DNA of 64,000 bases, from NCBI RefSeq assembly GCF_049337375.1, contig NZ_JBMPIV010000015.1, one strand, 5' to 3'. A model generated the notes under the pieces. It was not told the DNA's origin. It did no database searches and saw nothing but the letters and a program-made list of their open reading frames with translations. The first letter of the stretch is position 1; each line of letters opens with the position of its first letter. This document shows positions 1 to 61,969 of this stretch, one piece after another. A program made the position numbers and the translations under genes. This DNA comes from Nannocystis pusilla. GTDB lineage: Bacteria > Myxococcota_A > Polyangia > Nannocystales > Nannocystaceae.

Positions 1-450
1 TGCAACCCGGACACGAACGCGGGCTTGCCGGCCAACCTGGTCGGGCGCACCGGCCCCGATCGTGCGGCGCACCACGGCTTCAAGGCGATGCAGATCTCGG
101 CCTCGGCGCTGGCGGCCGAGGCGTTGAAGCTGACGATGCCGGCCAGCGTCTTCAGCCGCAGCACCGAATGCCACAACCAGGACAAGGTGAGCATGGGCAC
201 GATCGCGGCGCGCGACTGCCTGCGGATCGTCGAGCTGACCGAGACGGTCGCCGCGATCGGGCTGCTCACCATGTGCCAGGCGGTCGACCTGCGCGCGGGG
301 CACAACGTCCACGCGCGGGCGCGCACGCTGCACGCGGCGGTGCGCGGCGTCATCCCGATGGTCGACGCCGACCGCCGTCAGGACCGGGACATCGCGGCGG
401 TGCTGACGCTGCTGCGCGCGGGCGCGTTGCCGATCGGAGCGCTGTCGTGA
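1..450 (+). CDS. Aromatic amino-acid ammonia-lyase (HAL/PAL/TAL family), C-terminal fragment; the start lies upstream of the window
   Basis: Open frame from nt 1 with no stop. C-terminal region contains STECHNQDKVSMGTIAARD and other conserved lyase C-terminus motifs. Stop at 448-450 overlaps the next start (GTGA). Confidence 0.75.
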   Translation, partial: CNPDTNAGLPANLVGRTGPDRAAHHGFKAMQISASALAAEALKLTMPASVFSRSTECHNQDKVSMGTIAARDCLRIVELTETVAAIGLLTMCQAVDLRAGHNVHARARTLHAAVRGVIPMVDADRRQDRDIAAVLTLLRAGALPIGALS

Positions 451-851
451 GCCGGCTGCACGAGGTCTCGGTCGAGTTCGAGGTCCCGTTCCACGACGTC
501 GACATCCTCAACATCGTCTGGCACGGGCATTACTACAAGTACATGGAGTACGGCCGGACCGCGCTGATGCGCTCGCGCGGGCTCGACGTCGAGGACATCC
601 GCCGCGCGGGTTACGCCCTCCTGCTGGTCGACAGCCACTGCCGCTACACCTACCCGCTGCGCTACGCGGACCGCGCCCGCGTCGACGCGTGGTTCGTGGC
701 GGTTGCGCCGCGGCTGGTCGTGGCCTATCGCATCCGCAACCTCAAGGACGACCGCTGCTCGGCTCGCGGGCAGACGATCCTCGTCACCACCGACCAGGAA
801 GGTCGCCTCTTGCCGGAGACGCCCGATGCTCTGCTCCAGCGCCTGGTGTAG
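447..851 (+). CDS. Hotdog-fold acyl-CoA thioesterase (4HBT/YbgC-like)
   Basis: GTG start overlapping the previous stop. Sequence VSRLHEVSVEFEVPFHDVDILNIVWHGHYYKYMEYGRTALM is typical of 4HBT thioesterases. High GC3. Confidence 0.65.
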   Translation: MSRLHEVSVEFEVPFHDVDILNIVWHGHYYKYMEYGRTALMRSRGLDVEDIRRAGYALLLVDSHCRYTYPLRYADRARVDAWFVAVAPRLVVAYRIRNLKDDRCSARGQTILVTTDQEGRLLPETPDALLQRLV

Positions 852-879
852 CTCGCCATCCTCGCCCGCCCGTAAGGGC

Positions 880-1599
880 ATGTCCGTTTGGACAGGTCTT
901 TTCGCGCATGTCCTCGCGGCCATGGTCTTTCTCACCGGTCCGATCGGCCAGGCGAACGCCGCCGAGCCGCTGCCGATCACCGTGGCCGCGCCGGTGGTCG
1001 CCAGCATCACGCTCGACCAGCTGCTCGGGCAGTTCGCCGGGATGAGCGGGCTGCAGGCCAGCTTCCGCGAGGAGAAGCACATGGCGCTGCTGGCCGCGCC
1101 GCTCGTCAACGAGGGCACCATCTACTTCGTGCCGAACGGCAAGAAGCCGCGCCTGGCGCGGCACACGGCCAAGCCGGCCCGCTCGGTGGTGGTGATCGAC
1201 GGCAGCGCGCTCAAGCTGGCCGACGACGCCGGGCGCGAGGAGATCGCGCTCGACAAGAGCCCGGCGGTGCGGCTGTTCGTCGACTCGTTCGTCAAGATCT
1301 TCGCCGGCGACCGCGAGGCGCTGACGACCATGTACGCGATGGACCTGCAGGCCGACGGCCAGCGCTGGACGCTGAAGCTGAAGCCGAAGCTGGCGCCGCT
1401 CGACAAGCTGATCGAGCGGGTCGAGATCGCGGGCGACGGGGTGGTGATCGCGACGATGCGCGTGGTCGAGGTCGGCGGCGACGAGGCCGTGACCACGTTC
1501 TCGGCCGTCGACCCCAAGCGCAAGTTCTCCGCCGAGGAGCTGGGCTCGCTGTTCAGCCTGCCGCCGAAGCCGGCCGCGGCCCCGCCGGCGGCCCGCTGA
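880..1599 (+). CDS. LolA-like outer-membrane lipoprotein carrier family protein (aryl-polyene cluster type)
   Basis: N-terminal signal peptide MSVWTGLFAHVLAAMVFLTGPIGQANAA. Size and position between thioesterase and MMPL exporter match aryl-polyene/flexirubin clusters. Pro/Ala-rich C-terminal tail. Confidence 0.5.
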   Translation: MSVWTGLFAHVLAAMVFLTGPIGQANAAEPLPITVAAPVVASITLDQLLGQFAGMSGLQASFREEKHMALLAAPLVNEGTIYFVPNGKKPRLARHTAKPARSVVVIDGSALKLADDAGREEIALDKSPAVRLFVDSFVKIFAGDREALTTMYAMDLQADGQRWTLKLKPKLAPLDKLIERVEIAGDGVVIATMRVVEVGGDEAVTTFSAVDPKRKFSAEELGSLFSLPPKPAAAPPAAR

Positions 1600-1627
1600 G
1601 CGCGGCCTCCCGCTGGTCACCTGTTCC

Positions 1628-4012
1628 ATGGAACCTGCCCGATCAGACAGGCCGAGCGCGTTGCGGGCGGGCCTCGGCGCGGCGCTCGTGGCCGGGCTGG
1701 TGGCGTTCTGCGCGCTGCGCCTGCAGGTGGTCACCGACATCACCGCGTTCATGGCCGACGTCGCCGACCCCAAGCTGGCGGCGCTGTCGCGCGGGATGGC
1801 CAGCTCGGAGCTGACGCGCACCCTGGTGCTGTCGGTCTCGGACGAGCGCGGCGAGCCGGACGTGGCGATCGCCGGGGCGCAGGCGCTGGCCGATCGGCTG
1901 CAGGATCGACCGGAGGTGGCGTGGCTGCGCACCGGGCCGGGCGAGCTGCACGCCGAGGCGATCCACAACCTCTACTACCCGCGGCGGTTCTACCTCCTGG
2001 CCGACGAGGCAGCTGGCCTTCAGGACAGGTTGTCCGACGACGGACTGCGCGCGGCGGCCCGCGAGCTGCGGCGCCAGCTCGGCCTGCCGACGTCGGGGGT
2101 GATCAAGCAGATCGCGCCGGCCGACCCGCTGCTGGCCTATCCGGCCCAGCTGCGCCGGCTCGAGGCGGCCCAGGGCGGCGGGGTCGCGCTGCGCGACGGG
2201 CACTTCGTGGCCGAGGACCAGCACGCGCTGGTGATGCTGGCGACCCGCAGCTCGCCGTTCGACGCCGCCGACCAGGCGCCGCTGCAGGCCGCCATCGAGG
2301 CGGCGTTCGCCGAGGTCGACGCGCAGTCGGGCGGGCGCCTGGTGCTCGAGCAGTCGGGCGTGGCCCGCTTCGCCCTGGCGGCCGAGACCAGCATGCGCGA
2401 GGACATCGGCCGGATCTCCACGGTCTCGCTGGTCGGCATCGTCGCGCTGTTCCTGCTGATGTTCCGCTCGCCGCGGCTGGTGCTGCTGTCGCTGGCGCCG
2501 CTGGTGGCCGGCGTGGCGGCGGCGCTGGCGGCCTGCCTGGCGCTGTTCGGGGCGGTCCACGGGCTGACGCTGGCGTTCGGGGCGACGCTGATCGGCGTGT
2601 GCATCGACTACTCGGTGCACCTGTTCAACCACCACATGCTCGACCCGCGCGGCGGGCCGCGCCAGAGCGCGCGGCAGATCTGGCCGGGCCTGCTGCTCGG
2701 GGCGCTGACGACGGTGGCGGGCTTCGCCGGGCTGGCGTGGACGAGCTTTCCGGGGCTGCGCGAGGTGGCGCTGTTCGCCTCGATCGGGGTGCTGGTGGCG
2801 GCCCTGGCCACGCGCTACTGGCTACCTGACCTCTTGCCCATGGCCCCAAAGCCAGGTTGGTTGCAGCGGCGGGCCGCGGCCGGGCTGGCGCGGGTGGTCG
2901 CGGGGATGCGACGCCGGCGCTCGGCGGTGGCGGTGCTGCCGGCGGTGGCGCTGGGCCTGTGCGTGGTCGGGCTGCCGCGCATCGAGTGGTCGGACGACGT
3001 GCGGCTGCTGACGGCGCTCGACCCGGGGATGCTGGCCGAGGACGAGCGGGTGCGGACGCGGGTGTCGCGGATGGACGCGGGGCGCTTCGTGGTCGCGTTC
3101 GGGGCCGACGAGGAGGAGGCGCTGGCCGGCAACGACGCGGCGGCGGTGCGCCTGCGCGCGGCCCAGGCGGCCGGCGAGATCGAGGCGTTCCGCAGCCTGC
3201 ACGCGCTGGTGTGGTCGGCGGCGCTGCAGAAGGACAACCAGGCGGCGCTGGCCGACCCGAGCCTGCCGGCCCGGCTCGACGCGGCGTTCGTGGCCGAGGG
3301 CTTCCGCGCCGGCTCGTTCGCCAAGTTCTTCGCGGACATGTCCCATGGGCCAGACGTGATGCGGCCGGCCGACCTGGCCGCGACGCCGCTGGCCGAGGCG
3401 GCGCGGACGTTCCGGGCCGAGCTCGACGGCGGCGAGGTGGCCGTGGTGACGCTGCTGCGCGGGGTCGCCGACGCGACGGCGCTGCAGGCCCGCCTGGCCG
3501 ACCTGCCGCAGGTGCGCTACTTCGACCAGCAGGGCATGATGCAGGCGGCGTTCGGCCGCTACCGCGCGCGCACGCTCGAGCTGGTGGTGTTCGGCCTGTT
3601 CGCGGTGCTGGCGATGGTGTGGGCCCGCTACCGCCGGTTCGGGCTGGCGCTGGCGGCGTTCGCCCCGGCCGTGCTGGCGGCCGCGACGGCGCTGTCGGTG
3701 GTGGCGCTGTCGGGGGTGACGATCGGCATCCTCCACGTCGTCGCGCTGCTGCTGGTGCTCAGCATGGGGGTCGACTACGGGGTGTTCCTGGCCGAGAGCC
3801 GGCGCGACCCGGGCGGCTTCGACGCGACGGTGCTGAGCGTGCTGCTGGCGTGCCTGTCGACGGTGCTGGCGTTCGGGCTGCTGGCGATGTCGCAGAGCCC
3901 GGCGCTGCGGGCGATCGGGGTGACCGTCGGGCTCGGGGTGCTGCTCAGCCTGGTGCTGGCCCCGGCCGCCCTGGTGCTGGTCGGCGCGGGCGAGGGGAAG
4001 GAGCGCGGATGA
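1628..4012 (+). CDS. MMPL/RND-superfamily exporter (predicted exporter of aryl-polyene-type clusters)
   Basis: 794 aa with two blocks of transmembrane helices separated by large soluble loops, the MMPL architecture. High GC3 throughout. Confidence 0.7.
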   Translation: MEPARSDRPSALRAGLGAALVAGLVAFCALRLQVVTDITAFMADVADPKLAALSRGMASSELTRTLVLSVSDERGEPDVAIAGAQALADRLQDRPEVAWLRTGPGELHAEAIHNLYYPRRFYLLADEAAGLQDRLSDDGLRAAARELRRQLGLPTSGVIKQIAPADPLLAYPAQLRRLEAAQGGGVALRDGHFVAEDQHALVMLATRSSPFDAADQAPLQAAIEAAFAEVDAQSGGRLVLEQSGVARFALAAETSMREDIGRISTVSLVGIVALFLLMFRSPRLVLLSLAPLVAGVAAALAACLALFGAVHGLTLAFGATLIGVCIDYSVHLFNHHMLDPRGGPRQSARQIWPGLLLGALTTVAGFAGLAWTSFPGLREVALFASIGVLVAALATRYWLPDLLPMAPKPGWLQRRAAAGLARVVAGMRRRRSAVAVLPAVALGLCVVGLPRIEWSDDVRLLTALDPGMLAEDERVRTRVSRMDAGRFVVAFGADEEEALAGNDAAAVRLRAAQAAGEIEAFRSLHALVWSAALQKDNQAALADPSLPARLDAAFVAEGFRAGSFAKFFADMSHGPDVMRPADLAATPLAEAARTFRAELDGGEVAVVTLLRGVADATALQARLADLPQVRYFDQQGMMQAAFGRYRARTLELVVFGLFAVLAMVWARYRRFGLALAAFAPAVLAAATALSVVALSGVTIGILHVVALLLVLSMGVDYGVFLAESRRDPGGFDATVLSVLLACLSTVLAFGLLAMSQSPALRAIGVTVGLGVLLSLVLAPAALVLVGAGEGKERG

Positions 4013-4653
4013 ACCTTGGAGCATGGTCGATCGGTCCTGTCGTCACGGCCATGCTCCTCGGGGCATGTGCGAAGGGACAGGCGACCGAGACGGCGCCGCC
4101 GCGCGAGCTCGCCGAGGCCGACTACCCGGGGGCGCTGGCGACGACGCTGACGGGGCCCGACTTCATGGCCCGCCAGCGGCTGCGCGGGACGGCCCGGGGG
4201 CGCGAGATCGGCGGCGAGGTGGTGCTGCAGAAGCAGGGCGACGCGCTGACGCTGATCGGGCTGACGCCGTTCTCGACCAAGGCGTTCGTGGCCAAGCAGC
4301 AGGGCGCGGAGGTGAAGGTCGACGTGTTCGCGCCCGAGGGCAAGCTGCCGTTCCCGCCCCGCTTCATGCTGCTCGACGTCCACCGGGTGCAGTTCCTCGG
4401 CCTGCCGGGAGCGCCGCTGGCCGACGGGACCCACCGCGGCGAGGTCGGCGAGGAGAAGGTGACCGAGGTGTGGCAGGGCGGGGCGCTGCTCGAGCGCCGC
4501 TTCGAGCGCAAGGACGGCAAGCCGGGCGGGGAGATCGTCGTCACCTACGAGGGCGGGATGAAGGACGGGGCGCTGCCGTCGCGGCTGAGGCTCGTCAACG
4601 GGTGGTTCGGCTACGAGATCGCGGTCGAGACGCTGCAGTGGCAGCCGCTGTGA
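4009..4653 (+). CDS. DUF3261-like lipoprotein
   Basis: ATGA overlap with the MMPL stop. Lipobox MLLGAC. About 214 aa, as expected for the lipoprotein that follows the exporter in aryl-polyene clusters. Confidence 0.5.
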   Translation: MNLGAWSIGPVVTAMLLGACAKGQATETAPPRELAEADYPGALATTLTGPDFMARQRLRGTARGREIGGEVVLQKQGDALTLIGLTPFSTKAFVAKQQGAEVKVDVFAPEGKLPFPPRFMLLDVHRVQFLGLPGAPLADGTHRGEVGEEKVTEVWQGGALLERRFERKDGKPGGEIVVTYEGGMKDGALPSRLRLVNGWFGYEIAVETLQWQPL

Positions 4654-4722
4654 GCGCGTAGAAAAGGCCATGTCGTGGAGGACATGGCCGAAAAGACAGA
4701 AGTATTGCCGGCCGGCGCGCGT

Positions 4723-4762
4723 CGCCGGGGGGGGGGCCGCCCCGCCCCCCCCCCCCCGGCCG
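4723..4762. terminator. Homopolymeric G10 / C13 stem-loop between convergent genes (putative bidirectional terminator)
   Basis: cgccGGGGGGGGGGccgccccgCCCCCCCCCCCCCggccgg. It follows a GGCCATGTC-n6-GACATGGCC hairpin at about 4664-4690. Confidence 0.45.
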
Positions 4763-4768
4763 GGGCTC

Positions 4769-5128
4769 TTAGCGGGTCTCGAGCTTGAAGCCGGTGAGGC
4801 AGCGCTCGCCGCCGTTGCCGGCCTTGTAGGTCGGGGTGACCTCGACCTGCTTCTTGGCGCGCAGGGCCTCGAACAGCAGGTTGATCGAGTTGGCGCTGAG
4901 CTCGCGGCCGGGGCACAGCGAGCCGCCCCACTTGTAGTCGCGCTTTTGGCCGGTCTTCTCCTTGATGGAGACCGAGCCGTTGAACATGGCGTGGTTGTCG
5001 CTGCTGCTCTCGTAGAGGGTGACCGCTTCGACGTTGCCGACCGTGCCGTTGGAGTCGGCGAAGGCGGCGGCGGGGAGCATCAACGCCGTCAGGGCGGCGA
5101 GCAGGGACAGACGAGGACGTTGCGACAT
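4769..5128 (-). CDS. Small secreted Cys-containing protein, hypothetical
   Basis: Signal peptide MSQRPRLSLLAALTALMLPAAAFA. SD-like aggaga 6 nt upstream. 119 aa with good GC3. Confidence 0.55.
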   Translation of the reverse strand: MSQRPRLSLLAALTALMLPAAAFADSNGTVGNVEAVTLYESSSDNHAMFNGSVSIKEKTGQKRDYKWGGSLCPGRELSANSINLLFEALRAKKQVEVTPTYKAGNGGERCLTGFKLETR

Positions 5129-5284
5129 TGTGATTCTCCTGGGGGGTCGGCCCGTGGTGGGCACTCGGACTGCGGGCGCCAGGGTCCTATTTGCGTCCCC
5201 GACCTGCAACACCCAGTGAGCTCTCGATCTGGGCGAGATCGCGGGACGAGGGCGCGTGAGCGCCCCCTGCGGGCAAGCAGCGAC

Positions 5285-5600
5285 AGGGTCGGCCTGGAGA
5301 CAGAGATGTCCTTCGGGACATGTCGCGCTCGCGCGCGCCGAGGACACGTGACCGCCCTGAGGCGAGAGTGTCTCTTGGGACATGGCGAGCGCCGGCCCGA
5401 GGGCAGGCGGCCGCCGGAGAAGGAGTGTCTCTCGGGACATGTCGCGCGTGCGCAGGGTCGAAGGCCGGGTGACTGCCCCGGGACGAGAGTGTCTCTCGGG
5501 ACATGTCGATCGCACGTGGCGGACAGTCGACCGATCGGAGACAAACATGTCTCGCGGGACATGTCGAATGCGACAGTGTCCCGAGGGGCAGCTCAGCCGC
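5285..5600. repeat. Array of five degenerate ~24-nt palindromic units (GAGAGTGTCTCTCGGGACATGTCG) spaced about 62-66 bp apart
   Basis: Copies at about 5297, 5357, 5423, 5489 and 5550. CRISPR-like geometry, but the repeats are degenerate and belong to the genome-wide CATG hairpin family. Sits 3' of the 5593-6513 gene. Confidence 0.7.
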
Positions 5601-6513
5601 GCGCGCGCAGGGCCGCGCGGATCTTGGCGAGGGTGTCGTCGAGGCGCGAGGCGGGCACGCTGACGCGCGTCGGCATGCCGCCGCCGAGGCCGAGCAGGGC
5701 GACGAAGTCGAGGCCGCTGGCGAAGCTGGCGGCGATGTTCAGGGTCTGGCCGTCGATGACGACCGCCACGGGGGCGCGCTCCTGGCCGAGCAGCAGCAGC
5801 TCGGTCTTGTCGAACGGGCGCGGATTGCCGGGCACGCGCACGAGGGCGACGCCGTCCGCGACGACGTAGGCGCGGGCCAGCGCGGCGGCCTCGGCGGCCA
5901 TGGCGTCGAAGTCGGCGGCGGCGGCGGCGATCGCCTCCTGCTCGGCGCCGCGCGGGCGGCCGGCGACCAGCCAGCGGACGATCTTGTTGAGGAGGACGGT
6001 GTCCTCGTAGTGGGCCCGCAGCGCCTTGTCGACGAGGGCGCCGATCGGGCCGACCTCGCCGATCCGGGTGTCGACGGCGCGGGCGTCGGCGTCGGCGCCC
6101 GGGTAGGGCTCGACGCCGCGGAGCAGCCACTTGGCGGCCGAGTAGAGGCCGTCGAGGTCGAAGTGGGCGACGATGGTGTCGACCGGACCTGTCTCTTCGA
6201 CCATCTGCGGCGTGACGATCTCGGGGCAGGCGCCGTGCTCGGCCTTGGTGTGGAGCACGAAGCGCGGGTCGCCGCGGAACTGGGCGTGGCGCTCGTGATC
6301 GTGGTGGTCGACCCACCGGGCCAGGCGCGCGCCCAGGCCGGTGAGGAACTTGCCCGTGATCTTCTCGAAGCCGCTGCCGATGCCCTCGGCCGCGAAGGCG
6401 ACGTCGAGCACGACCACGCGGCCGCGCAGGTTCGCGGGCTTCGGCAGCCGTCGCGGACTGGCGAACACCAGGTCGATCGCGGCGGCGTCGGCGAGCCTGG
6501 ACGTGGCGCTCAC
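5593..6513 (-). CDS. Hypothetical protein (His-rich stretch VDHHDHERHAQF)
   Basis: GTGA overlap with the upstream TPR gene. 306 aa with high GC3. No family recognised. Confidence 0.5.
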   Translation of the reverse strand: MSATSRLADAAAIDLVFASPRRLPKPANLRGRVVVLDVAFAAEGIGSGFEKITGKFLTGLGARLARWVDHHDHERHAQFRGDPRFVLHTKAEHGACPEIVTPQMVEETGPVDTIVAHFDLDGLYSAAKWLLRGVEPYPGADADARAVDTRIGEVGPIGALVDKALRAHYEDTVLLNKIVRWLVAGRPRGAEQEAIAAAAADFDAMAAEAAALARAYVVADGVALVRVPGNPRPFDKTELLLLGQERAPVAVVIDGQTLNIAASFASGLDFVALLGLGGGMPTRVSVPASRLDDTLAKIRAALRARG

Positions 6514-6821
6514 CCTTCCAGCGCGGCGCGGGCGGATTCGAGCTCGCCGAGCGCGTGCGCGTCGCCGGCCGCGCGTGCGGCCTGAACGCCCTGATCGAGG
6601 ACCTGCAGGGCGCCGTCGCGGTCGCCGGCCTCGACCAGGGTGTTGCCGGCCATCAAGTAGGCCGGCACGTATTCGGGGATCTTGGCGATGAGCTCGCGGA
6701 ACTCGACGATCGCCTCGGCGAGCTGCCCGCGGCGCTTCAGCTCCATGGCCAGGCCGTAGCGCGGGAACGCCTCACCTGGCTTTTGGGCCACGAACTGTCG
6801 GAGCATCGCCAGGCGATCCAC
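6510..6821 (-). CDS. Small TPR-repeat protein
   Basis: 103 aa, GTG start. TPR-like sequence AIVEFRELIAKIPEYVPAYLMAGNTLVEAGDRDGALQVLDQGVQAA. Operonic with its neighbours. Confidence 0.6.
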   Translation of the reverse strand: MDRLAMLRQFVAQKPGEAFPRYGLAMELKRRGQLAEAIVEFRELIAKIPEYVPAYLMAGNTLVEAGDRDGALQVLDQGVQAARAAGDAHALGELESARAALEG

Positions 6822-6830
6822 GGCGGGACC

Positions 6831-7391
6831 TCAGGAAGCGGCCTGCTGCTGGCGCATGCGCGGCTTGTAGGTCTGCTTGTGCTTCTCGATGTACTCGCTG
6901 GCGGCCGCGTCCTCGACGCCGAGGGCCTTGAGGACCTCGGGGGTCTGGTCGAACACCGGGGTGTCCTGCAGGTGGCCGACGAGCAGCAGGTAGCTGGCGA
7001 CGTGGGCCGGCGGGTACTTCTTGAGCAGCTCGGCGACGCCCTCGCGCAGCTTCTCGGGCGGGTTGGTGACGCAGAAATCCTCGTCGGTCTCGCCCATGGT
7101 GTGCTTCACGCCGAGGAAGTCGAGGTAGTCGACCAGCATCTGGCGGTGGTGGCGCATGAGCCACTCGAGCAGGAGCGCGAGCGCGAGGTTGTCGTTGCCG
7201 CCGGTCAGCTCGGTGTCGAAGCGGCGGCGCCACGCGCGGCGGCGGGCGGCCTGCGTGTACGCGGTCGGCGGGACGTTGACGCTGCAGCCGCCGGCCTTGA
7301 GCACCTCGCGGACTTCCTTGCCGGAGAGCTCGTCGTAGTACGCGTCGATGTGGCCTTGGCCCAGGTGTTGACAGATCTCGATCGGCTTCAC
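6831..7391 (-). CDS. Hypothetical protein (186 aa)
   Basis: GTG start (MKPIEICQHLGQGHIDAYYDEL) preceded by ggaag. Only the C-terminal third of the 1122-aa ORF has believable composition. Confidence 0.45.
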   Translation of the reverse strand: MKPIEICQHLGQGHIDAYYDELSGKEVREVLKAGGCSVNVPPTAYTQAARRRAWRRRFDTELTGGNDNLALALLLEWLMRHHRQMLVDYLDFLGVKHTMGETDEDFCVTNPPEKLREGVAELLKKYPPAHVASYLLLVGHLQDTPVFDQTPEVLKALGVEDAAASEYIEKHKQTYKPRMRQQQAAS

Positions 7392-7484
7392 AGCGCTTCC
7401 TTCGGGTGGGCGGCACCCTAACCGCCCTGCCGGTTCCGCGCAACCCGGCCGCGCCGGGAACGCCGTCCGGCAGCAGGCCGGCTT

Positions 7485-10367
<2,883 letters not shown>

Positions 10368-10374
10368 GCGGGCC

Positions 10375-10725
10375 GGGATGTCTCATGGGGCATGTCCCCA
10401 GGGACATGCAGGGTGGGCGCGGCGAGACGGATGCATGGGGGAATGAGGATGCCTCGAAGGGCATGCCTTGAAGGACATGCATTGGCGGGCGGCGGGATGT
10501 CTCGATGAGCATGTCTTGAAGGACATGCAGAAGTACGGTGGGCCGGTGCGGGCGGCGCAGGGCGAGGCGGTGGATGGCTCGTGGGAAGGGAGTCCGTCGC
10601 CGCGACCGTGACTCAGCGGCGCTCTGCTCGGCAGGTGGCGCCTGTCTCGAAGGACATGCCACGTGGATCCTCGACGACGCTCACATATGTCTGTTTAGGC
10701 ATGTTCATTAGGACATATCGTGCGA
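10375..10725. repeat. Cluster of CATG-core hairpins (GGGCATGTCC..GGACATGC etc.) 3' of the VWA gene
   Basis: At least five stem-loops, e.g. GGGCATGTCCccaGGGACATGC, GGGCATGCCttgaaGGACATGCa, GAGCATGTCttgaaGGACATGC. Confidence 0.7.
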
Positions 10726-10789
10726 GGCGTGACGCGCAGCACGGGCGGCGTTTGCATCGCGGACGGCGCCGCGCATCCCTGGAGAAGGG

Positions 10790-11644
10790 GTGGCGATGCA
10801 GGGGAGCGGCTCACACATTCGACCCGGGCGCAGGGCCGCGGCGCTCGTGGCGCTGCTCGGCTGTCACGCGCCCGAGGTCGTGGGGCTCGACGGAATGGTG
10901 CCGGACGCGGTGCCGGGGTGCGCGGGCCCGGGCGGGCGCGGGTTCGCGTTCACGGGCGGGCCGCAGGTGTTCGTGGTGCCGGAGTGCGTGACGACGCTGT
11001 CGGTCGAGCTGTGGGGCGCGCAGGGCGGGCCGAGTCGCTGTGGGATCGACGAGATCCACGGGCTGCCCGACGTGCAGATGGACGGCGGTCGCGGCGGCTG
11101 GCTGCGCGCGGAGCTGCCGGTGCGACCCGGCGAGGTGCTGCTGGTGCTGGTCGGCGGACGCGGCGGGATCGACGGGGCGCCGGGATGGAACGGAGGCGGA
11201 CGCGGCGGCGTGTGGGCCGGGGGCGGCGGCGGCGGATCGGACATCCGGATCGGCGGCGCCAGCTTGATCGATCGCGCGCTGGTGGTAGGCGGCGGAGGCG
11301 GCGGCTCGTGCGGCTTTCCGGACCACGGGGCGGGCGGCGACGGCGGGGGGCTCGTCGGCGACGACGGGATCGTGGGCGAGGACTTCTGGAGCGCGGGCGG
11401 CGGCGGCAGGCAACACGCCGGAGGCGCAGGCGGCTCGTCGCCCGGGCAGTCCGGGGTGTTCGGGCTCGGCGGCGGAGCGGCGCGCTATCACGTGGCAGGC
11501 GGCGGCGGCGGCTGGTACGGCGGCGGCGGGGCGTTCGGCGCGGGCGGTGGCGGCGGTTCGTCGCACGTGGGCGTCGATGCGGACGAGGTGGAGTTCGAAG
11601 CGGGAGCGCGTCGCGGCGACGGTGCGGTGCAGATCTACTGGTGA
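10790..11644 (+). CDS. Glycine-rich lipoprotein (ALK-like Gly-rich domain family)
   Basis: Lipobox LVALLGC. Long GGGGxGG tracts with conserved blocks ELWGAQGG, VAGGGGGWYGGGG and a C-terminal GDGAVQIYW. Paralogous to the 11929 gene. Confidence 0.65.
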   Translation: MAMQGSGSHIRPGRRAAALVALLGCHAPEVVGLDGMVPDAVPGCAGPGGRGFAFTGGPQVFVVPECVTTLSVELWGAQGGPSRCGIDEIHGLPDVQMDGGRGGWLRAELPVRPGEVLLVLVGGRGGIDGAPGWNGGGRGGVWAGGGGGGSDIRIGGASLIDRALVVGGGGGGSCGFPDHGAGGDGGGLVGDDGIVGEDFWSAGGGGRQHAGGAGGSSPGQSGVFGLGGGAARYHVAGGGGGWYGGGGAFGAGGGGGSSHVGVDADEVEFEAGARRGDGAVQIYW

Positions 11645-11928
11645 GCGCGGTCCGCTTGGCGTGACGCGGGGTGATGGTTGCGATCGCTACCACGTCGAGG
11701 CGGGCGCGCGTATGCCTCGCGGTCGACGGTCGACGACCGCGATACGTGGCGAGGATCGCCGGCGACGAGCCACGGCTGCTTCGCGGCGGTGGTGATGCGT
11801 CACGTAGTTCTTTGGGACATGTCTCGATGGACATGTGATGGGCGATCGCTCGTGACTGGCGACACAGGGGTGTTTGCGTGGATGCCTCGTGCGCATCATG
11901 CCTACAGGTCGCAGGGGAGGCCGCGCAG

Positions 11929-12966
11929 ATGGTTGTCGAGGGTCGGTGGCGTACGGTGTCGGTGATGCTCGCAATCGTGTCCGGCGGCTGCGACGAGATC
12001 ACGGATACTCGCCACCTGCGACCGGTGCCGAGCACGGTCGCCGGTGCCGGGGCCGAGGCCGACGACGCGCTGGCGCTCGAGTGCGAGGCGGAGGCGCTCG
12101 ACGTGTGCGAGGCCGAGTGCGTCGACGTCGCGAGCGACGCGCGTCACTGCGGCGGCTGCGGGCGCGTGTGCGCCGGCACGTGCGCGGCGGGCTACTGCGA
12201 GGCGCAGTGCGGGCCCGGCCAGATCCGCTGCGACGGTCGCTGCGTCGACCGCACGCGCGTGACGCCCGACGGGAGCGCGCGCGAGTTCGAATTTACCGGG
12301 GCGCCGGAGACGTTCGTGGTGCCCGAGTGCGTGTCGCGGCTCACCGTCGAGCTGTGGGGCGCGCAGGGCGGCGGTTCGCGCTGCTGCGACGGGCTCGAGC
12401 AAGCGGACGGAGGGCTCGGCGCCTACGTGCGGGCGGAGCTCGAGGTGGAGCCCGGCGAGGCGCTGCAGATCCGCGTCGGCGGGCGCGGCGGAATCGAGGG
12501 CGCGGCGGGCTACAACGGCGGCGGCCTCGGCGGCGCGTTCGCGGGCGGCGGCGGTGGAGCCAGCGACGTGCGCCAGGGCGGCGGGACGCTCGACGACCGG
12601 ATCTTCGTCGCGGCCGGCGGCGGGGGCGGGCAGTGCGGCTGCCCGGACCACGGCGCAGGCGGCCCGGGCGGGCTTGCGATCGGCGGCCCCGGGGTGGCGC
12701 TGCTGCCCGAGTGGCACGCGGCCGGCGGCGGGACGCAGAGCCACGGCGGGGCCGAGGGCTCGACGCCCGGCGAGGCGGGCGGGTTCGGTGAGGGCGGAGG
12801 CGGCGGGGTCTACCACGTGGCGGGCGGCGGAGGCGGCTGGTTCGGCGGCGGCTCGGCCCACGCGGCGGGCGGGGGCGGCGGGTCGTCGCGCCTCGGCGCC
12901 GACCCGGACGGCAGCGGGCTGCCGGCGGTGCGCGAGGGCGACGGGCTGGTGCGGATCCGCTGGTGA
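11929..12966 (+). CDS. Glycine-rich lipoprotein paralog with N-terminal Cys-rich repeats
   Basis: Lipobox-like AIVSGGC. Cys-rich region CEAECVDVASDARHCGGCGRVCAGTCAAGYCEAQCGPGQIRCDGRC. Shares the same conserved blocks as 10790-11644 (ELWGAQGG, VAGGGGGWFGGG, GDGLVRIRW). Confidence 0.65.
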   Translation: MVVEGRWRTVSVMLAIVSGGCDEITDTRHLRPVPSTVAGAGAEADDALALECEAEALDVCEAECVDVASDARHCGGCGRVCAGTCAAGYCEAQCGPGQIRCDGRCVDRTRVTPDGSAREFEFTGAPETFVVPECVSRLTVELWGAQGGGSRCCDGLEQADGGLGAYVRAELEVEPGEALQIRVGGRGGIEGAAGYNGGGLGGAFAGGGGGASDVRQGGGTLDDRIFVAAGGGGGQCGCPDHGAGGPGGLAIGGPGVALLPEWHAAGGGTQSHGGAEGSTPGEAGGFGEGGGGGVYHVAGGGGGWFGGGSAHAAGGGGGSSRLGADPDGSGLPAVREGDGLVRIRW

Positions 12967-13020
12967 GCGAGGGCGAGGTCACGTGTCCGTTCGCACATGA
13001 CCGGAAAGACATCCACTCGA

Positions 13021-13069
13021 CCCGCCGGCCCGGCCTTCCCCCTCTGCCGCGGCCGGCGGGTTTTCTTTT
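13021..13069 (+). terminator. Rho-independent terminator
   Basis: Stem cccgccggcc ... ggccggcggg followed by ttttctttt, just 3' of the second Gly-rich gene. Confidence 0.7.
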
Positions 13070-13102
13070 GCCGAGGTCGTGGCATCCTCGCCGCGGCCGC
13101 GC

Positions 13103-13984
13103 ATGACCGCTCCCGATCGCACCATCGTCGCCGCCGACGGCACCCGCGTGGTCTACCGCCGCGAGGGCGAGGGGCCGGCGCTGCTGCTGTGCAATGGCAT
13201 CACCACGTCGCGGTTCTTCTGGACCCACCTGGCGCCGCGCTGGGCCAGGCGGTTCACGGTGATCACGTGGGACCTCAAGGGCCACGGGCGCAGCGACCCG
13301 GCGCGCACGGCCGCGGGCGTCGAGATCCCGGCGCTGGCGCGCGACGCCCTGGCCATCCTCGACGCCGAGGGGCTGGCGGAGGCGGTGCCGGTCGGCTTCT
13401 CGATGGGCTGTCAGGTGGCGCTCGAGATCTATCGCGCCGCGCCGGCGCGGGTGCGCGGGCTGGTGCTGCTGCTCGGGCCCTCGGGGCGGGTGTTCGACAC
13501 GGCGCTCGGTCCGGTCGGGCCGGCGCTGCACGGGCTCATCGCTCGCCTGCCGGCGCCGGGGTTCCGGGTGGCGTTCCGCGGGGTGCGCTCGATCGTCGGT
13601 CTGCCGGGCAGTCGGCGTCTGGGGCAGCTGCTCGGGCTCATCGGCCCCGCGGCCACGCCGGCCGACGTGAAGCTCTACATCGATCACTTCGTGCGCGACC
13701 TCGACCCCGGCACGTTGGCGGCGATGGCGCTGGCGGCCCAGAGCCACTGCGCGGGCGACCTGCTGCCGAGGATCGCCGTGCCGACGCTGGTGGTGGCCGG
13801 CGACCGCGACGTGTTCGCGCCGGCGCCCCGGGTCGGCCTGCCGCTGCATCGCGCGATCCCGGGCAGCCAGCTGCTTCGTCTGGCCCACGGGACTCACACC
13901 AGCCTGTTCGAGCACCACCAGGAGATCGGGGCGGCGGTCGAACGGTTCTGCGAGGGCCTCACGGGGCGCCGCGAGGTCGGGTAA
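13103..13984 (+). CDS. Alpha/beta-hydrolase fold protein
   Basis: HGxS motif region WDLKGHGRS. Nucleophile elbow GFSMGCQVA. About 290 aa. Confidence 0.7.
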   Translation: MTAPDRTIVAADGTRVVYRREGEGPALLLCNGITTSRFFWTHLAPRWARRFTVITWDLKGHGRSDPARTAAGVEIPALARDALAILDAEGLAEAVPVGFSMGCQVALEIYRAAPARVRGLVLLLGPSGRVFDTALGPVGPALHGLIARLPAPGFRVAFRGVRSIVGLPGSRRLGQLLGLIGPAATPADVKLYIDHFVRDLDPGTLAAMALAAQSHCAGDLLPRIAVPTLVVAGDRDVFAPAPRVGLPLHRAIPGSQLLRLAHGTHTSLFEHHQEIGAAVERFCEGLTGRREVG

Positions 13985-13993
13985 AACGGCGGC

Positions 13994-15277
13994 ATGCGCC
14001 GCTTCGCTTCGCTTACTCTCCTCCTCGCCGCCTGCAGCACCGCGGCGGCCACCTCCGGCCCCGACAGCGCCGGCGGCACCGATGGCACAAATTCTTCGAT
14101 CTCGTCGACGACCGGCGAGCCACCCGGCCCCGGCTCGTCGGCGGCGACGGATACGCCGACGACCGGCGCGGGGACGACGGAGGGTGGCACGCTGGATCCG
14201 AACGCGACCACCACGGGCCAGGGCTCCGAGGAGGACTACGACGCGCCCGGGGCGGCGCCGGTCGGCAACGCGACGTTCTCGGTGGTCGCCGGCGAGCGCA
14301 CGCTGCTGGTCGAGGCGTGGTATCCGGCCGACATCTCGGCGCAGGCGGCCGCCGACGCCGGGCATCCGATCGCCGAGTTCGTGCCGGAAGGCCCGCAGCG
14401 CGACATGATGGTGGCGCTGCTGGCCAAGCTGTCGGAGCACGGGCAGGTCGGCGTGCGCGAGCAGACCCGCTCGGCGCGCGACGCCGCGTCGGCGGGCACG
14501 GGGCCGTACCCGCTGGTGATGTTCTCGCACTGCCACGGGTGCGTGCGCTTCTCGATGTTCACGATCGCCGAGCACCTGGCCAGCCACGGATTCGTGGTGG
14601 TCGCGCCCGACCACGCCGGCAACACCCTGTTCGACGACCCGCAGGCGCCGCTCGACGAGGCGTTCCTGCAGGTCCGCGTGGCCGACCAGATGGCGGTGCT
14701 CGACGCGGTGCTCGACGCCGGCAACTCGGCGGTCCCCGAGGCCATCCGCGGCGCGATCGATCCGGCCCGGATCGGCGCGATGGGCCACAGCTACGGGGCC
14801 GCGACCGCGGGGCGGCTGGCCCAGGAGGACGACCGGATCGTGGCGGCGCTGCCGATCGCGGCGCCGGTCCAGAACCCGATCTTCTCCGGCACCAAGCTGG
14901 CGGAGATCGACGAGCCGCAGCTGTTCGTGCTCGCCGCCGAGGACAACAGCATCGGCAAGATCGGCAACCAGCTCATCGAGTCCAACTTCGACGCCGCGGC
15001 CACGCCGGCCTACCTGGTGCGGATGAAGGACACCGGCCACTGGGGCCCGACCGACATCTGCGGCCTGGCCGAGCAGTTCGACGCCGGCTGCGGCCCGGGC
15101 GCGCGCCAGACCGACGGCTCCGAGTTCGTCTACCTCGATCCGCTGCAGGCGCGGGCGATCGTCGCGGCTTACGCGGCCGCGTTCTTCGACCACCACCTGC
15201 GCGGCAACGCGGCGGCGCTCGAGTTCTTGCAGACGGCGACGCCGCCGGAGTTGGTCGAGGTCGAGGCGCGGCTGTAG
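13994..15277 (+). CDS. Lipoprotein alpha/beta hydrolase (esterase/lipase, dienelactone-hydrolase/PAF-AH-like)
   Basis: Lipobox LLLAAC followed by a Thr/Gly-rich linker. Catalytic core PLVMFSHCHGC...GHSYGAATAG contains a GxSxG motif. Confidence 0.65.
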   Translation: MRRFASLTLLLAACSTAAATSGPDSAGGTDGTNSSISSTTGEPPGPGSSAATDTPTTGAGTTEGGTLDPNATTTGQGSEEDYDAPGAAPVGNATFSVVAGERTLLVEAWYPADISAQAAADAGHPIAEFVPEGPQRDMMVALLAKLSEHGQVGVREQTRSARDAASAGTGPYPLVMFSHCHGCVRFSMFTIAEHLASHGFVVVAPDHAGNTLFDDPQAPLDEAFLQVRVADQMAVLDAVLDAGNSAVPEAIRGAIDPARIGAMGHSYGAATAGRLAQEDDRIVAALPIAAPVQNPIFSGTKLAEIDEPQLFVLAAEDNSIGKIGNQLIESNFDAAATPAYLVRMKDTGHWGPTDICGLAEQFDAGCGPGARQTDGSEFVYLDPLQARAIVAAYAAAFFDHHLRGNAAALEFLQTATPPELVEVEARL

Positions 15278-15282
15278 CGAGG

Positions 15283-15365
15283 TGAATGTCTGAAAGGGCA
15301 TGTCGTGAAAGACATGCCTTTGAGGCATAGCCCTGGGGACATGTCGCCGGGGACATGCGTTTCTT
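15283..15365. repeat. CATG-core hairpin cluster (GGCATGTCgtgaaaGACATGCC, GGGACATGTCgccGGGGACATGC)
   Basis: Perfect 8-bp stem directly after the stop of the esterase gene. Confidence 0.7.
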
Positions 15366-15720
15366 TGGCGCGACCCGAGCGACGGATGACCGGGGCCGCT
15401 CGAGTTGCGGGCATGCGGTCTCTCGGTGCGACCTGAGCGGCGGCTACCCGGGGCCGCTTGAGTTTGAGCGGCCCATGCGGTGAGCGGGGCGACGTGGGCC
15501 CGTCGTGCCGCGCGGGAGCGTCGGGCGCCCGGCGGGCGCGCGAGTCGAGGAGTCCAGCGCCCTGCGCCCGGAGGTTGCCTCTCGAGGTCTCGCTCGCGCC
15601 GCGCGGTCCTGGTTTTTTGAACTGTCGCGGGGTCGCCGAGCAACGCCGTTCCGTCGCGGCTTTCTCGGGCGATGACGGGCGGGTTCGTCCGCGCGGGTCG
15701 GCCCGGCGCGGGCGGGGCTC

Positions 15721-16815
15721 TTGTCGGGCGGGCCTTCGCGGGCCATGCTGCGGGGCATGGACTTCGCACGGCTCGCGGAGGCGCTCGGCGGCGAGACCCT
15801 GGCGGCGGAGGCGGGCGGGCGGAGCGAGCTGGCGCCGTTCGTCCTGCGCTTCGGGACAGGTCCCGAGGTACATGTCTATCCCGAGCTCGAGGACGGCGCG
15901 TGCGTCGGGGCGGTGTTCGCGGTGCTGCGCGCCGACGCGGGCGAGATGCCGCGGATCGTGCTGCGGGCCGAGGACGCGCTCGACCGCGGCGGCAAGGCGG
16001 TGGGCCTCAACCGCGAGCTGCAGCTCGGCGACCCGGCGTTCGACGCGGCGGTCTACGTCGAGTCCGAGGCCCCGGACGCGCTCGTGGCCCGGGTGCTGGC
16101 CGAACCGGCGGCGCGGGCGGCCGCGGTGGCGCTGGTGCGCGGGCCGGCCCGCGAGGCCCAGCTCGGCGAGGGTCGGGTGACCGCGCGGCTGTCGGCGGCG
16201 CAGCTGGCGGAGACGACGGTCGCGGAGGCGCTGCTCGCGTCGCTGCGCGCCCTGGCGGCGGCGATGGCTGTCCCGAAGGACATGCCGACGCGCGGCGAGC
16301 TGGTGAGCCGGCGCGCGGTCGGCCACATCTTCGTGATCGCGTTCGCGTGGCTGGTCACCCTCGGCCTGGCGGTGCTGCTGCGCCCGCCGCCGGTGCTGGC
16401 GTGGGGGCCGGTGTTCGGGGCGCTCGGGCTCGGGGGCCTGTTGTGGCTGGTGGTGCTGGTCCCGCTCGGGCTCATCCTGCGCGGCGCGCCCGACTCCCTG
16501 CGGTGGTTCACGCTCAGCGCGGCGGCCTTCCTGCTGACGACGCCGTTCGCCGGGATGAAGCTGGCGCTGTGGGTCAACGCGGCGCTCGACCGCGGCCCCG
16601 AGGTCGCCGTCCGCCTGCCGGTGCAGCTGGTCGACCGCAGCGAGACGCTGGTGCTCGTCGACGTGGTCGGGCTCGAGGTCGGTCGCACGTCGACGCGCCT
16701 GTCTGTCCCGATGGACAGGGTCTTGGGGACATTGCCGAAAGCGCCTGGCTCGTTGGTCCTGACCCAGCGGCCGGGGGCGCTCGGCTGGCCGTGGCTGGTC
16801 GACCTGCGGCCGTGA
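15721..16815 (+). CDS. Hypothetical integral membrane protein
   Basis: High GC3 ORF with about 4 transmembrane helices. Contains three in-frame CATG/CAGG palindromic islands with rare codons (15852-15885, 16268-16285, 16698-16740). The start may be internal. Confidence 0.45.
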   Translation: MSGGPSRAMLRGMDFARLAEALGGETLAAEAGGRSELAPFVLRFGTGPEVHVYPELEDGACVGAVFAVLRADAGEMPRIVLRAEDALDRGGKAVGLNRELQLGDPAFDAAVYVESEAPDALVARVLAEPAARAAAVALVRGPAREAQLGEGRVTARLSAAQLAETTVAEALLASLRALAAAMAVPKDMPTRGELVSRRAVGHIFVIAFAWLVTLGLAVLLRPPPVLAWGPVFGALGLGGLLWLVVLVPLGLILRGAPDSLRWFTLSAAAFLLTTPFAGMKLALWVNAALDRGPEVAVRLPVQLVDRSETLVLVDVVGLEVGRTSTRLSVPMDRVLGTLPKAPGSLVLTQRPGALGWPWLVDLRP

Positions 16816-16829
16816 GCGGTCGCCAGCGA

Positions 16830-16925
16830 GGAGCATGTTCGGATGGACATGTCGTATCGAGCATGTCGCATGGGATATGTATTTAAGGACATGCCCATGG
16901 GGGCATGTCCCGATCGACAGGCCTT
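16830..16925. repeat. CATG-core hairpin cluster between convergent genes
   Basis: GGACATGTCgtatcGAGCATGTCgcATGGGATATGT..GGACATGCCCATGGGGGCATGTCC. Confidence 0.7.
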
Positions 16926-16928
16926 GGA

Positions 16929-18589: not shown

Positions 18590-18830
18590 GCGAGCGGGCA
18601 TGGAGCGCGGGTGCCGAGGCGGGGACGCGGCGGCGAACGGGCCGAGCTCGGGAGGCGAGCGACGGCCGCGAGCGGGCATGGAGCGCGGGTGCCGAGGCGG
18701 GGACGCGGCGGCGAACGGGCCGAGCTCGGGAGGCGAGCGACGGCCGCGAGCGGGCAGCGAGCGCGGGTGCCGAGGCGGGAGCGCGGCGGCGAACGGCCTG
18801 GGCTCGGCCGCGAGTCGGCCGGCTGCGGCA
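18590..18830. repeat. 78-bp tandem direct repeat, three copies
   Basis: The unit begins gggcatggagcgcgggtgccgaggcggggacgcggcggcgaacgggccgagctcggg. Copies start at about 18597, 18675 and 18753. It lies in a ~1 kb intergenic region that also carries CATG hairpins at 18350-18560 and 18900-18935. Confidence 0.75.
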
Positions 18831-24791: not shown

Positions 24792-24860
24792 ATGATAGGA
24801 CATGTCATTTGTGACATGTCGGAAATATAAGTGTCACAAGGACATGTCTTGAAGAACATG
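24790..24860. repeat. AT-richer CATG-core hairpin cluster between convergent genes
   Basis: GGACATGTCatttgTGACATGTCgg...GGACATGTCttgaagaACATGTCC. Confidence 0.7.
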
Positions 24861-24986
24861 TCCTGGAGGCGTCGATACGATCCGGATCGACGCGAGGTCG
24901 CTCGTATGACGAGCCTCGCGCGTAGGAAAAGCCGGGGACCGACGCGGGCGCCCGGCTCGTGGGGGGACGCAGCGCTCACGCGCGGC

Positions 24987-45959: not shown

Positions 45960-46250
45960 GGTGATGAAAGACATGGCGATTTGGACATTCTTGAAGGGAC
46001 ATGTCGCATCGGGCATGTCCAATGCGACATGTCATCACGTCTCCGGTCGGAGCTGTTCGAAATGCCACGTTCTTTCGGACATGTCCTCGGGGCCATGTGC
46101 AGCGCCGAGGCGCTCGGGACCGCTCGACGGCGCGCGCTGAAGCGTCCTTACCGGATGGGGGCGCTCAGCGCTCGCGCGTGGGCGAGAAGCGGGGCCTGTC
46201 AAAAAGGAATGACTTCAAGAACATGTCCAGCGGGCCATGTTCTTGGGCCC
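45960..46250. repeat. CATG-core hairpin cluster
   Basis: GGGACATGTCgcatcGGGCATGTCCaatgcGACATGTCATC, GGACATGTCCtcgGGGCCATGT, GAACATGTCCagcgGGCCATGTTC. Confidence 0.7.
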
Positions 46251-50135: not shown

Positions 50136-50795
50136 TCACGAACCGGTCGCGGCCGGACCGGCGTCGCCGTCGTCGCGGTCGAGGGCGCGGCGGATGCTGG
50201 CGGCCCAGCCTTCGAGGTCGGTGAGGGTGGCCTGGAGCTCGGCCGGCGAGCGGGCCAGCTCGGCGAGGCGGGCCCGCAGCTGGTCCTTGCCGAGGCGCAG
50301 CCGGCCGCGCACGGTGCCCTCGGGCACGCTGAGCAGCTCGCTGATCTCGCGCCCCGACAGGCCCTCGAAGATGTTGAGCTCGAGCACGATTTGCTGGTCG
50401 AGCGGGATCTCTCGCAGCGCCAGCACGAGCAGCTGGGCCTCGCGCCGGCGCATGACGATCGAGCTCATCGACGACGGCGACAGGTCCTTGGCGCACAGCG
50501 CCCCGAAGTCGAGCGCCTCGCCCTGACGCTTGTGCTTGGTGCGGATGTAGAGGCGCAGCACGTTGAGGGCGATGGCGAAGACGAACCGCTTGAAGCTGGT
50601 CTCGCCGCGGAAGCCGTCCTTCGCCTTGGTGCACTCGAGGAAGGTCTGACTGACGAGGTCGGCGGCGTCGTGCTCGCTCGAGACCTTGTTGCGGAAGAAC
50701 CGGGCGATCGCGCCGAAGTGTCGCTTCACCAGCCGCTCTCCCGCGCCGCGATCGCCGCTGCGCCAGGCCGAGAGCAGTTCCCAGTCGGGGTCCAT
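50136..50795 (-). CDS. ECF (sigma-70 family group 4) RNA polymerase sigma factor
   Basis: Region 2 FFRNKVSSEHDAADLVSQTFLE. Region 4 LSGREISELLSVPEGTVRGRL. Divergent from the kinase gene. Confidence 0.85.
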   Translation of the reverse strand: MDPDWELLSAWRSGDRGAGERLVKRHFGAIARFFRNKVSSEHDAADLVSQTFLECTKAKDGFRGETSFKRFVFAIALNVLRLYIRTKHKRQGEALDFGALCAKDLSPSSMSSIVMRRREAQLLVLALREIPLDQQIVLELNIFEGLSGREISELLSVPEGTVRGRLRLGKDQLRARLAELARSPAELQATLTDLEGWAASIRRALDRDDGDAGPAATGS

Positions 50796-50868
50796 GGCGC
50801 CTCGATCTTACCTCCGATCGCGCCGCCCGCGGGGCCGCTCCGCCTGTTATCTTCACTGCGATCCGACG

Positions 50869-61939: not shown

Positions 61940-61969
61940 GGGCACGGGCGAGCCGCTCGCGGCCAGGCG

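Follow-up and report, generated by a model that had tools for sequence, protein, structure and literature searches.

The gap at 5285-5600 of a 64,000-nucleotide (nt) stretch of Nannocystis pusilla DNA (hereafter the window, whose numbering is used throughout) raises the question of what a regularly spaced, five-copy array of a short palindromic unit does between two minus-strand genes, one at 5593-6513 and the other at 4769-5128. The initial annotation had favored a local amplification of a dispersed hairpin family serving as a multi-hairpin terminator for the gene at 5593-6513 and had offered, as an alternative, a degenerate or orphan array of clustered regularly interspaced short palindromic repeats (CRISPR). 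Our analysis recovers the array and its amplification from the dispersed family; it rejects the CRISPR alternative and does not demonstrate the terminator. We propose that the array is probably a locally amplified cluster of genus-specific palindromic elements that reside at gene 3' ends and may act at the level of RNA.

Both a general repeat search and Tandem Repeats Finder (TRF) detected the array, and the unit sequences quoted in the initial annotation could be placed in it (agagatgtccttcgggacatgtcg, the first copy by coordinate, at 5302-5325; GAGAGTGTCTCTCGGGACATGTCG at 5485-5508; and caaacatgtctcgcgggacatgtcg, the fifth copy, at 5542-5566). In the repeat search (family D2), 30-nt copies begin at 5296, 5358, 5415, 5479, and 5537 and are 63-83% identical to the reference copy; their spacing of 62, 57, 64, and 58 nt gives an interval of 57-64 nt rather than the 62-66 bp first reported. 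Read on the minus strand from the gene at 5593-6513, the units comprise unit 1, nearest that gene (core GACATGTCCCGCGAGACA at 5548-5565; whole unit about 5510-5567); units 2 and 3, which share the core GACATGTCCCGAGAGACA (5490-5507 in a unit spanning about 5446-5509, and 5426-5443 in a unit spanning about 5389-5445); unit 4 (core GCCATGTCCCAAGAGACA at 5369-5386; unit about 5327-5388); and unit 5, the terminal unit nearest the gene at 4769-5128 (core GACATGTCCCGAAGGACA at 5307-5324, with a TCTCTGTCTCC arm reaching to about 5296). All are in direct orientation, with unit lengths of 58, 64, 57, and 62 nt. The additional GAGAG..CTCTC inverted repeat that had been ascribed to every unit occurs in three of them, one of which has it without mismatch; in the two end units its place is taken by GAGACA..TGTCTC, a repeat shifted in register. 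A sixth, partial family element, TGCCCCTCGGGACAC on the minus strand at 5576-5590, abuts the stop codon of the gene at 5593-6513, and at its position N. radixulma and N. bainbridge have CCTGTCC-TTCG/CTCG-GGRCA.

The four stretches that had looked like spacers (5326-5368 and about 5387-5425, 5444-5489, and 5508-5547) are linkers that each bear a degenerate GGTCACNTGTCC motif. The segment 5324-5392 is 74% identical to 5445-5513 over 69 nt, and the 69-nt spacer-containing blocks of this repeat (D1) show identities of 74% and 61%. TRF reports a period of 121 nt over 5296-5566 (2.2 copies, 74% matches, score 277) and, in a second call, a period of 57 nt over 5313-5448. Given this homology among the spacers, the array is a tandem repeat whose units, of about 60 nt (super-period 121 nt), have diverged. 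A coding repeat was considered and rejected: the unit lengths are not multiples of three, and there is no signal in the GC content at third codon positions (GC3), the array having flat GC1/2/3 values of 0.64-0.70 in every frame against a GC3 of 0.97 in the gene at 5593-6513.

The same locus could be followed across the genus by scanning for the 306-aa product of the gene at 5593-6513, with one genome taken per species. Both flanking genes and the gap are conserved in all four relatives, with proteins 90-97% identical; for the 306-aa protein the identities are 97% in Nannocystis sp. RBIL2 (L001), 95% in N. exedens DSM 71 (L002), 92% in N. bainbridge (L003), and 90% in N. radixulma (L004). The gap holds five units in the window, four in RBIL2, about three to four in N. 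exedens (one of them degenerate), five in N. bainbridge, and one in N. radixulma, a range of one to five units among five Nannocystis genomes. Unit 5, next to the downstream gene, is the only unit common to all five genomes; it is 80-91% identical among the four multi-unit genomes and 61-70% identical to the single unit of N. radixulma. Unit 1 of the window matches the first RBIL2 unit at 85% and unit 4 matches RBIL2 unit 3 at 77%, and the inner units in general range from 45 to 77% between species. Unit 3 of the window is without a clear counterpart in RBIL2 and represents an extra copy, and N. bainbridge has a species-specific duplicate pair (its units 4 and 5, 73% identical). With flanking proteins 90-97% identical and inner units only 45-77% identical, the array is a fast-evolving variable-number tandem repeat (VNTR) whose end units are orthologous and whose inner units turn over by gain and loss. 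Throughout the alignment of all 18 units from the five genomes (A1), a 19-nt core, CGACATGTCCCGAGAGACA on the gene strand, is near-invariant in 18 of 18 units, the rest of the unit drifts, and every linker retains the degenerate GGTCACNTGTCC motif. Copy-number variation of this kind makes this locus, and similar ones, usable for strain typing.

A comparable variability is seen in the shorter repeats at an orthologous gene end (4654-4700; 11790-11860 in N. bainbridge), where 14-nt units number two in the window, two in RBIL2, and five in N. bainbridge; as unit numbers vary between species, the repetition is unstable at the 14-nt and the 60-nt level alike. In a more distant Nannocystis metagenome-assembled genome, the orthologous position (L005, 10960-11040) is without the GGACATGTCC family and has instead another small palindrome, TGTATCG-TTTC-GATACA, which is repeated and hints at lineage-specific families of the same kind.

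The core is itself a member of a family dispersed through the genome. On the gene-sense strand, the 18-nt core GACATGTCCCGAGAGACA is a dimer of the GGGACATGTC family, with a second CAT 14 nt past the first CATG, and the family as a whole consists of GGACATGTCC-type palindromes with CATG centers exactly 14 nt apart. The distance between CATGs in the window is 14 nt in 30 cases, 13 nt in one, 15 nt in none, and 28 nt in 11; this phasing recurs in the orthologous loci of the four relatives and is not found in loci of other Nannocystaceae and Polyangia. These motifs are far more abundant than chance allows: the window has 53 occurrences of GGGACATGTC with at most one mismatch where shuffled sequence has 3.7 +/- 2.0, and 34 of ATGTCCCGAGAGACA with at most three mismatches where 1.5 are expected, and GACATGTCC ranks first or joint first among the 9-mers of the window, RBIL2, and N. 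bainbridge despite 73% GC. Across the five Nannocystis sequences, the 10-mer GGACATGTCC (up to one mismatch) has a density of 0.38-1.0 per kb; none of 76 other Myxococcota loci exceeds 0.19 per kb. The proposal that the array is a local amplification of this dispersed hairpin family is thereby upheld, given a core that is a family dimer, homologous linkers, and a copy number that changes across the genus.

The family is unevenly distributed relative to genes. With a family-type hairpin taken as a 6-bp stem and a 4-nt loop, and with intergenic and coding DNA separated by our own GC3-based gene calls, the 19.3 kb of intergenic DNA contain 76 such hairpins and the 125.8 kb of coding DNA 24; overall, the density of the family between genes is about 15-100 times that in coding sequence. 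The density is greatest in convergent gaps (7.2-9.1 per kb, with an element in 7 of 9 gaps), lower in co-directional gaps (3.2-3.4 per kb, 32 of 65 gaps), and almost nil in divergent gaps (0-0.5 per kb, 1 of 9 gaps); in coding DNA it is 0.03-0.22 per kb. In co-directional gaps, the median distance of an element is 84 nt from the upstream stop codon and 176 nt from the next start codon. This distribution fits a gene-3'-end element and not a promoter or operator.

Other higher-order arrays of the family with homologous linkers lie in long 3' gaps, at 38658-38795 (69-nt period, 71% identity) and 10376-10530 of the window and at 5671-6006 of the N. exedens locus (periods of about 95 and 190 nt). 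The five-copy array is the most regular case of a common higher-order pattern. We also observed that runs with a 14-nt period (GGRCATGYC plus 5 nt, two to seven units) fill many gaps just past stop codons, namely, at 852-921, 4654-4700, 10368-10720, 11805-11842, 15278-15360, and 16816-16928, with further sites at 24792-24866, 38440-38860, 45966-46106, 60730-60790, and 61966-62039.

The core also occurs in metagenomes. The exact 18-mer GACATGTCCCGAGAGACA was found in 36 metagenome stretches, in one copy each, and 33 of the 36 have a GC content of at least 69.6%. As several of these contigs hold other elements of the family, they derive from Nannocystis-like organisms. After duplicates were collapsed, and with positions read by eye, the 18-mer lies in the sense orientation from -1 to 68 nt past a stop codon at 11 unique intergenic loci and in antisense just past a stop codon at two (binomial p of about 0.02 by our own calculation). 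Because it occurs singly past stop codons, mostly in sense, in these contigs, the core is a gene-end element that recurs in single copy and was amplified at the array locus, and its orientation to the gene at 5593-6513 is the usual one. In some Nannocystis-like contigs (L108, 8031-8058; L089; L107), the 18-mer sits within a perfect palindrome of 20-24 bp, TCTCTCGGGACATGTCCCGAGAGA, which could fold with a CAUG loop. A promoter reading of the 18-mer was considered and set aside: the motif stands directly past the stop codon in most contigs, and the array units are without AT-rich hexamers. Such hexamers (gattat, ggtata, gttaaa, tattaa) do follow the 18-mer in several of the metagenome contigs.

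Folding gives strong hairpins for many of the dispersed family clusters: z is below -1.7 in 12 of 16, the stems (8-15 bp) extend across the CATG cores, and the lowest energy is -43 kcal/mol. Unique family hairpins from co-directional gaps outside the array locus show their non-Watson-Crick pairs as G.U on the sense strand (that of the upstream gene) 21 times and on the opposite strand 4 times (binomial p = 0.0009), a bias that fits selection on the sense transcript. Within the array, the segment that follows the core is complementary to varying registers of a constant CCGAGAGACA, with arms TGTCTC, CTCTCG, TCTCTC, TCTCGG, and CTCGG; as these arms match different registers of the same sequence, nearly all units have retained or restored a small stem. 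For the 491-nt region as a whole, folding is somewhat more stable than in shuffled versions (z -2.9).

Taking these findings together, we propose the following scenario. A segment of about 60 nt, comprising one gene-end palindromic element and its flank, would have been duplicated locally, most likely through unequal recombination or slippage between neighboring copies. Family elements would reside in the transcribed 3' flanks of genes and would act on the 3' untranslated part of the upstream transcript or be tolerated there. As small stem-loops or as a motif recognized by a factor, they might protect the 3' end, cause pausing, or bring about partial termination, by analogy with what has been reported for REP elements and proposed for the mycobacterial TRIT. 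The five copies would then insulate or stabilize the transcript of the gene at 5593-6513 ahead of the gene at 4769-5128, which would have a promoter of its own. The number of copies as such is probably a side effect of unstable repeats and not a designed feature.

Several observations weigh against this proposal. The RNA-level role of the elements in the source organism is one that we infer, and the G.U and orientation biases could also arise from mutation associated with transcription or replication or from transposition with a strand preference. Folding of the array units is weak (-7.5 to -14.6 kcal/mol; mean z -1.1), with stems of 4-6 bp per unit, and RNAalifold applied to the 18 units recovered only an invariant 4-bp TGTC/GACA stem, with no covariation or compensatory change. 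For the family-type 6+4+6 hairpin of the array units, the better-paired strand is the antisense (plus) one: positions that read as A.C mismatches in the gene-sense orientation become G.U pairs there. Neighboring 14-nt units are no more complementary to each other than expected from the composition of their alignment columns (p = 0.3-0.5, and 0.04-0.07 for isolated pairs), and sequence-specific recognition by a protein could therefore account for the conservation as well as structure does. Finally, the window and its four relatives overlap in orthologous regions, and the counts pooled from them are not fully independent; the trend in density across gap types holds in the window alone.

One alternative would make the array a multi-hairpin, factor-independent (intrinsic) terminator of the gene at 5593-6513, with the five copies as a fail-safe. 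That the array belongs to the 3' end of this gene is partly borne out: its onset lies 3-27 nt past the stop codon, the family is enriched past stop codons and in convergent gaps, and the exact core stands in sense 0-70 nt past stop codons elsewhere. Three family members in the window even have a T-rich tail (4689-4666, 15340-15357, and 881-894). The termination half of the claim fares less well. A canonical intrinsic terminator combines a GC-rich stem-loop with a U-tract, and no U-tract follows any array unit, nor did a terminator scan of 5130-5600 find a site; the nearest one is at 4689-4666. The stems are short, with only the 4-bp consensus stem invariant. Terminator-like sites in the window are no more than slightly in excess of chance (6 against 3.7, 4 against 3.7, and 9 against 3.9 +/- 1.9 expected), and the T fraction in the 15 nt downstream of family elements (0.17, against 0.20 upstream) indicates no enrichment of T-rich tails. 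According to PMC3993855, the RNA polymerase of mycobacteria, another high-GC lineage, needs a U-tract at intrinsic terminators. By this analogy, along with the absent U-tracts and weak stems, the intrinsic-terminator reading is weakened, and we regard it as rather unlikely. A terminator role is plausible and remains unproven, since the units have neither U-tracts nor strong stems.

A second alternative takes the core as a putative operator, with the units as duplex-DNA binding sites for a sequence-specific protein that either regulates the gene at 4769-5128 or marks gene ends. The near-invariance of the core without covariation would suit such sites, as would the rigid 14-bp phasing of CATG combined with variable spacers, which resembles phased protein sites, and the TGTC-N6-GACA arrangement, which has the geometry of a site for a dimeric regulator. 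The terminal unit is moreover co-conserved with the promoter-proximal block of the gene at 4769-5128, and the perfect TCTCTCGGGACATGTCCCGAGAGA palindrome of some metagenome contigs points in the same direction. Against this, the family is nearly absent from divergent gaps, which can hold promoters only, and commonest in convergent gaps, which can hold terminators only; its elements are closer to the upstream stop than to the downstream start; the strand-specific G.U and orientation biases would be unexpected for symmetric duplex sites; and inner units have been gained and lost between close species with the flanking genes unchanged. We therefore hold this reading to be quite unlikely.

A more speculative possibility, to which we would give a similarly small chance, is that the core and the 14-nt-phased CATG family constitute a genus-specific punctuation of gene ends that is read strand-specifically by a dedicated protein, the array being a dosage-tuned platform for it. 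Such a protein could work on RNA or DNA, in termination, in processing, or as a roadblock; the elements would then not count as passive hairpins or as selfish repeats, and the five copies would set how much transcription of the gene at 5593-6513 enters the next gene.

The remaining explanations fare worse. The elements could be products of mobile elements similar to REPs and REPINs, spread by a RAYT-type single-strand transposase, with the array as a site of repeated insertion; they are indeed short, extragenic, high-copy, lineage-specific, orientation-biased palindromes that cluster as REPINs do (PMC3116915). The homologous linkers point to duplication of a segment rather than to independent insertions, the unit profile reveals no conserved 5' tetranucleotide of the GTAG kind, and no transposase was seen in the available sequence, in which no search aimed at one was made; this origin seems very unlikely. 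A further reading takes the array as tandem small RNA genes, one per unit, comparable to NsiR1, which is present as tandem copies in Anabaena. The even spacing of about 60 nt, a small stem-loop in each unit, and the folding of the 491-nt region would be compatible with such genes. Yet no unit has a promoter-like or terminator-like signal of its own, there is no covariation, the inner units are poorly conserved between species, and Rfam lends no support to a known RNA family, with no gathering-level match in the whole window and, over 4600-5700, a single match at chance level (E = 0.46) as the only one at E<=1; we consider the idea highly improbable. A CRISPR array, lastly, can practically be dismissed, the likeness being confined to a superficial geometry (a partly palindromic core of about 24 nt every 60 nt or so, with about 35-40 nt between cores), whereas each spacer is part of the repeating unit, an outcome that the initial annotation had itself named as refuting, and is homologous to the other spacers and to those of the orthologous arrays in other species, the near-invariance is limited to the 19-nt core where near-identical repeats of about 23-55 nt are required, the same core is found singly past stop codons elsewhere, no Cas domain was detected among the 16 proteins scanned at 1-16815 (within about 10 kb of the array), blastn of the array against 50,697 phage and 72,556 plasmid records returned no match, and the four spacers have no exact match in IMG/VR. 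A false CRISPR lead is thus removed.

Turning back to the favored reading of locally amplified gene-end elements acting at the RNA level, its closest parallels are among the known repeats of bacterial gene ends. The REP, BIME, and REPIN clusters of Enterobacteria and Pseudomonas are likewise short imperfect palindromes, extragenic and lineage-specific, present in many copies, and arranged as singlets, doublets, and ordered tandem clusters with duplicated flanks in the transcribed gaps that follow genes; in Pseudomonas fluorescens, REP elements form ordered tandem clusters that include flanking sequence (PMC3116915). The Nannocystis elements share with them the stem-loop-forming palindrome (clearly in the dispersed clusters and with weaker stems of 4-6 bp in the array units), an extragenic and highly repeated occurrence within one lineage, and a placement past genes, in convergent and co-directional gaps, with rarity in divergent ones. 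They differ in a much shorter basic unit, a 10-bp palindrome every 14 nt, in array units that are direct and not alternating, and in having no obvious GTAG-type tetranucleotide. TRIT is a palindromic, largely bidirectional, genus-restricted motif of gene termini in Mycobacterium, for which a binding factor was suspected by its authors (PMC3152330). Like the Nannocystis family, it is a sequence-conserved palindrome tied to gene ends in one genus with a high-GC genome poor in U-tract terminators; unlike it, TRIT has another sequence, forms a single long hairpin at about -8 relative to the stop codon, and is not described as a 14-nt-phased run or a higher-order tandem array.

At the level of the array, the head-to-tail units whose number differs between related genomes are those of a VNTR or minisatellite. 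MIRU minisatellites, which are mycobacterial VNTRs, are found within operons and may contain short reading frames overlapping the genes on either side. Their likeness to the array lies in tandem intergenic units of about 50-100 bp that vary in copy number between conserved flanking genes; the array differs in unit lengths that are not multiples of three and in units built around a dispersed palindrome. By these analogies, the array is a REP/TRIT-like gene-end repeat that forms a minisatellite. Literature searches on the motif or on Nannocystis repeats returned nothing relevant, the motif search giving only papers on p53 response elements, and a REP/TRIT-like family of gene-end palindromes is apparently documented here for the first time in Nannocystis. 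Nannocystis is a myxobacterium with a large genome of 73% GC and, it seems, few canonical U-tract terminators; here, the combination of 14-nt phasing, sense bias, and post-stop position makes the family a practical marker of transcript ends, and the family could aid the study of how transcripts end and are insulated in such genomes.

The upstream gene (5593-6513, minus strand), in whose 3' flank the array lies, encodes the 306-aa protein, conserved across Myxococcota; the downstream gene (4769-5128, minus strand) encodes a 119-aa protein with a signal-peptide-like N terminus and has a GGAGAA ribosome-binding site. Neither protein has a match in Pfam or NCBIfam, and exact-protein look-ups found neither on record. 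Between the last unit and the downstream start codon, a stretch of 165 nt (within 5129-5295, minus strand) has a mean column identity of 81% in the alignment of the five genomes (A2) and includes the invariant blocks GGTGTTGCAGGTCG and GCAAATAGGAC; given this identity and these blocks, the stretch fits a promoter and leader proper to the gene at 4769-5128, and region 5129-5295 is presumably its promoter and 5' untranslated region. Downstream of the same gene, two family units form a hairpin, GGCCATGTCC-TCCA-CGACATGGCC (4666-4689, minus strand), which is followed by TTTTCT; with -17 kcal/mol and z -6.0, it is the sole terminator-like site near the array. Directly past the stop codon of this gene (4724-4768) come a run of about 10 G, CCGCCCCG, and about 13 C, which might form a very stable hairpin or represent an assembly-prone homopolymer; the orthologous sequence of RBIL2 differs.

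The Pfam matches among the 16 neighboring proteins (1-16815) are to lyase, thioesterase, LolA-like, MMPL, DUF3261, TPR, VWA, glycine-rich, and hydrolase domains. Two of these proteins, encoded next to each other at 10790-11644 and 11956-12966, both match the ALK/LTK glycine-rich domain (PF12810, E of about 1e-19), which is named after animal receptor kinases. Elsewhere in the window, a 78-nt unit is repeated 2.8 times with 95% identity at 18590-18807, in an 898-nt gap between divergent genes, and has family elements around it at 18462, 18551, and 18918. Another 78-nt tandem repeat (52302-52554, 3.2 copies), with CTGTCC-N4-GGACAGGTCG hairpins, lies inside the reading frame at 50686-54258, whose product has a protein kinase-like N terminus and a WD40-like C terminus; being in frame, it encodes a 26-aa linker repeat, and a family-like palindrome may here have been taken into coding sequence.

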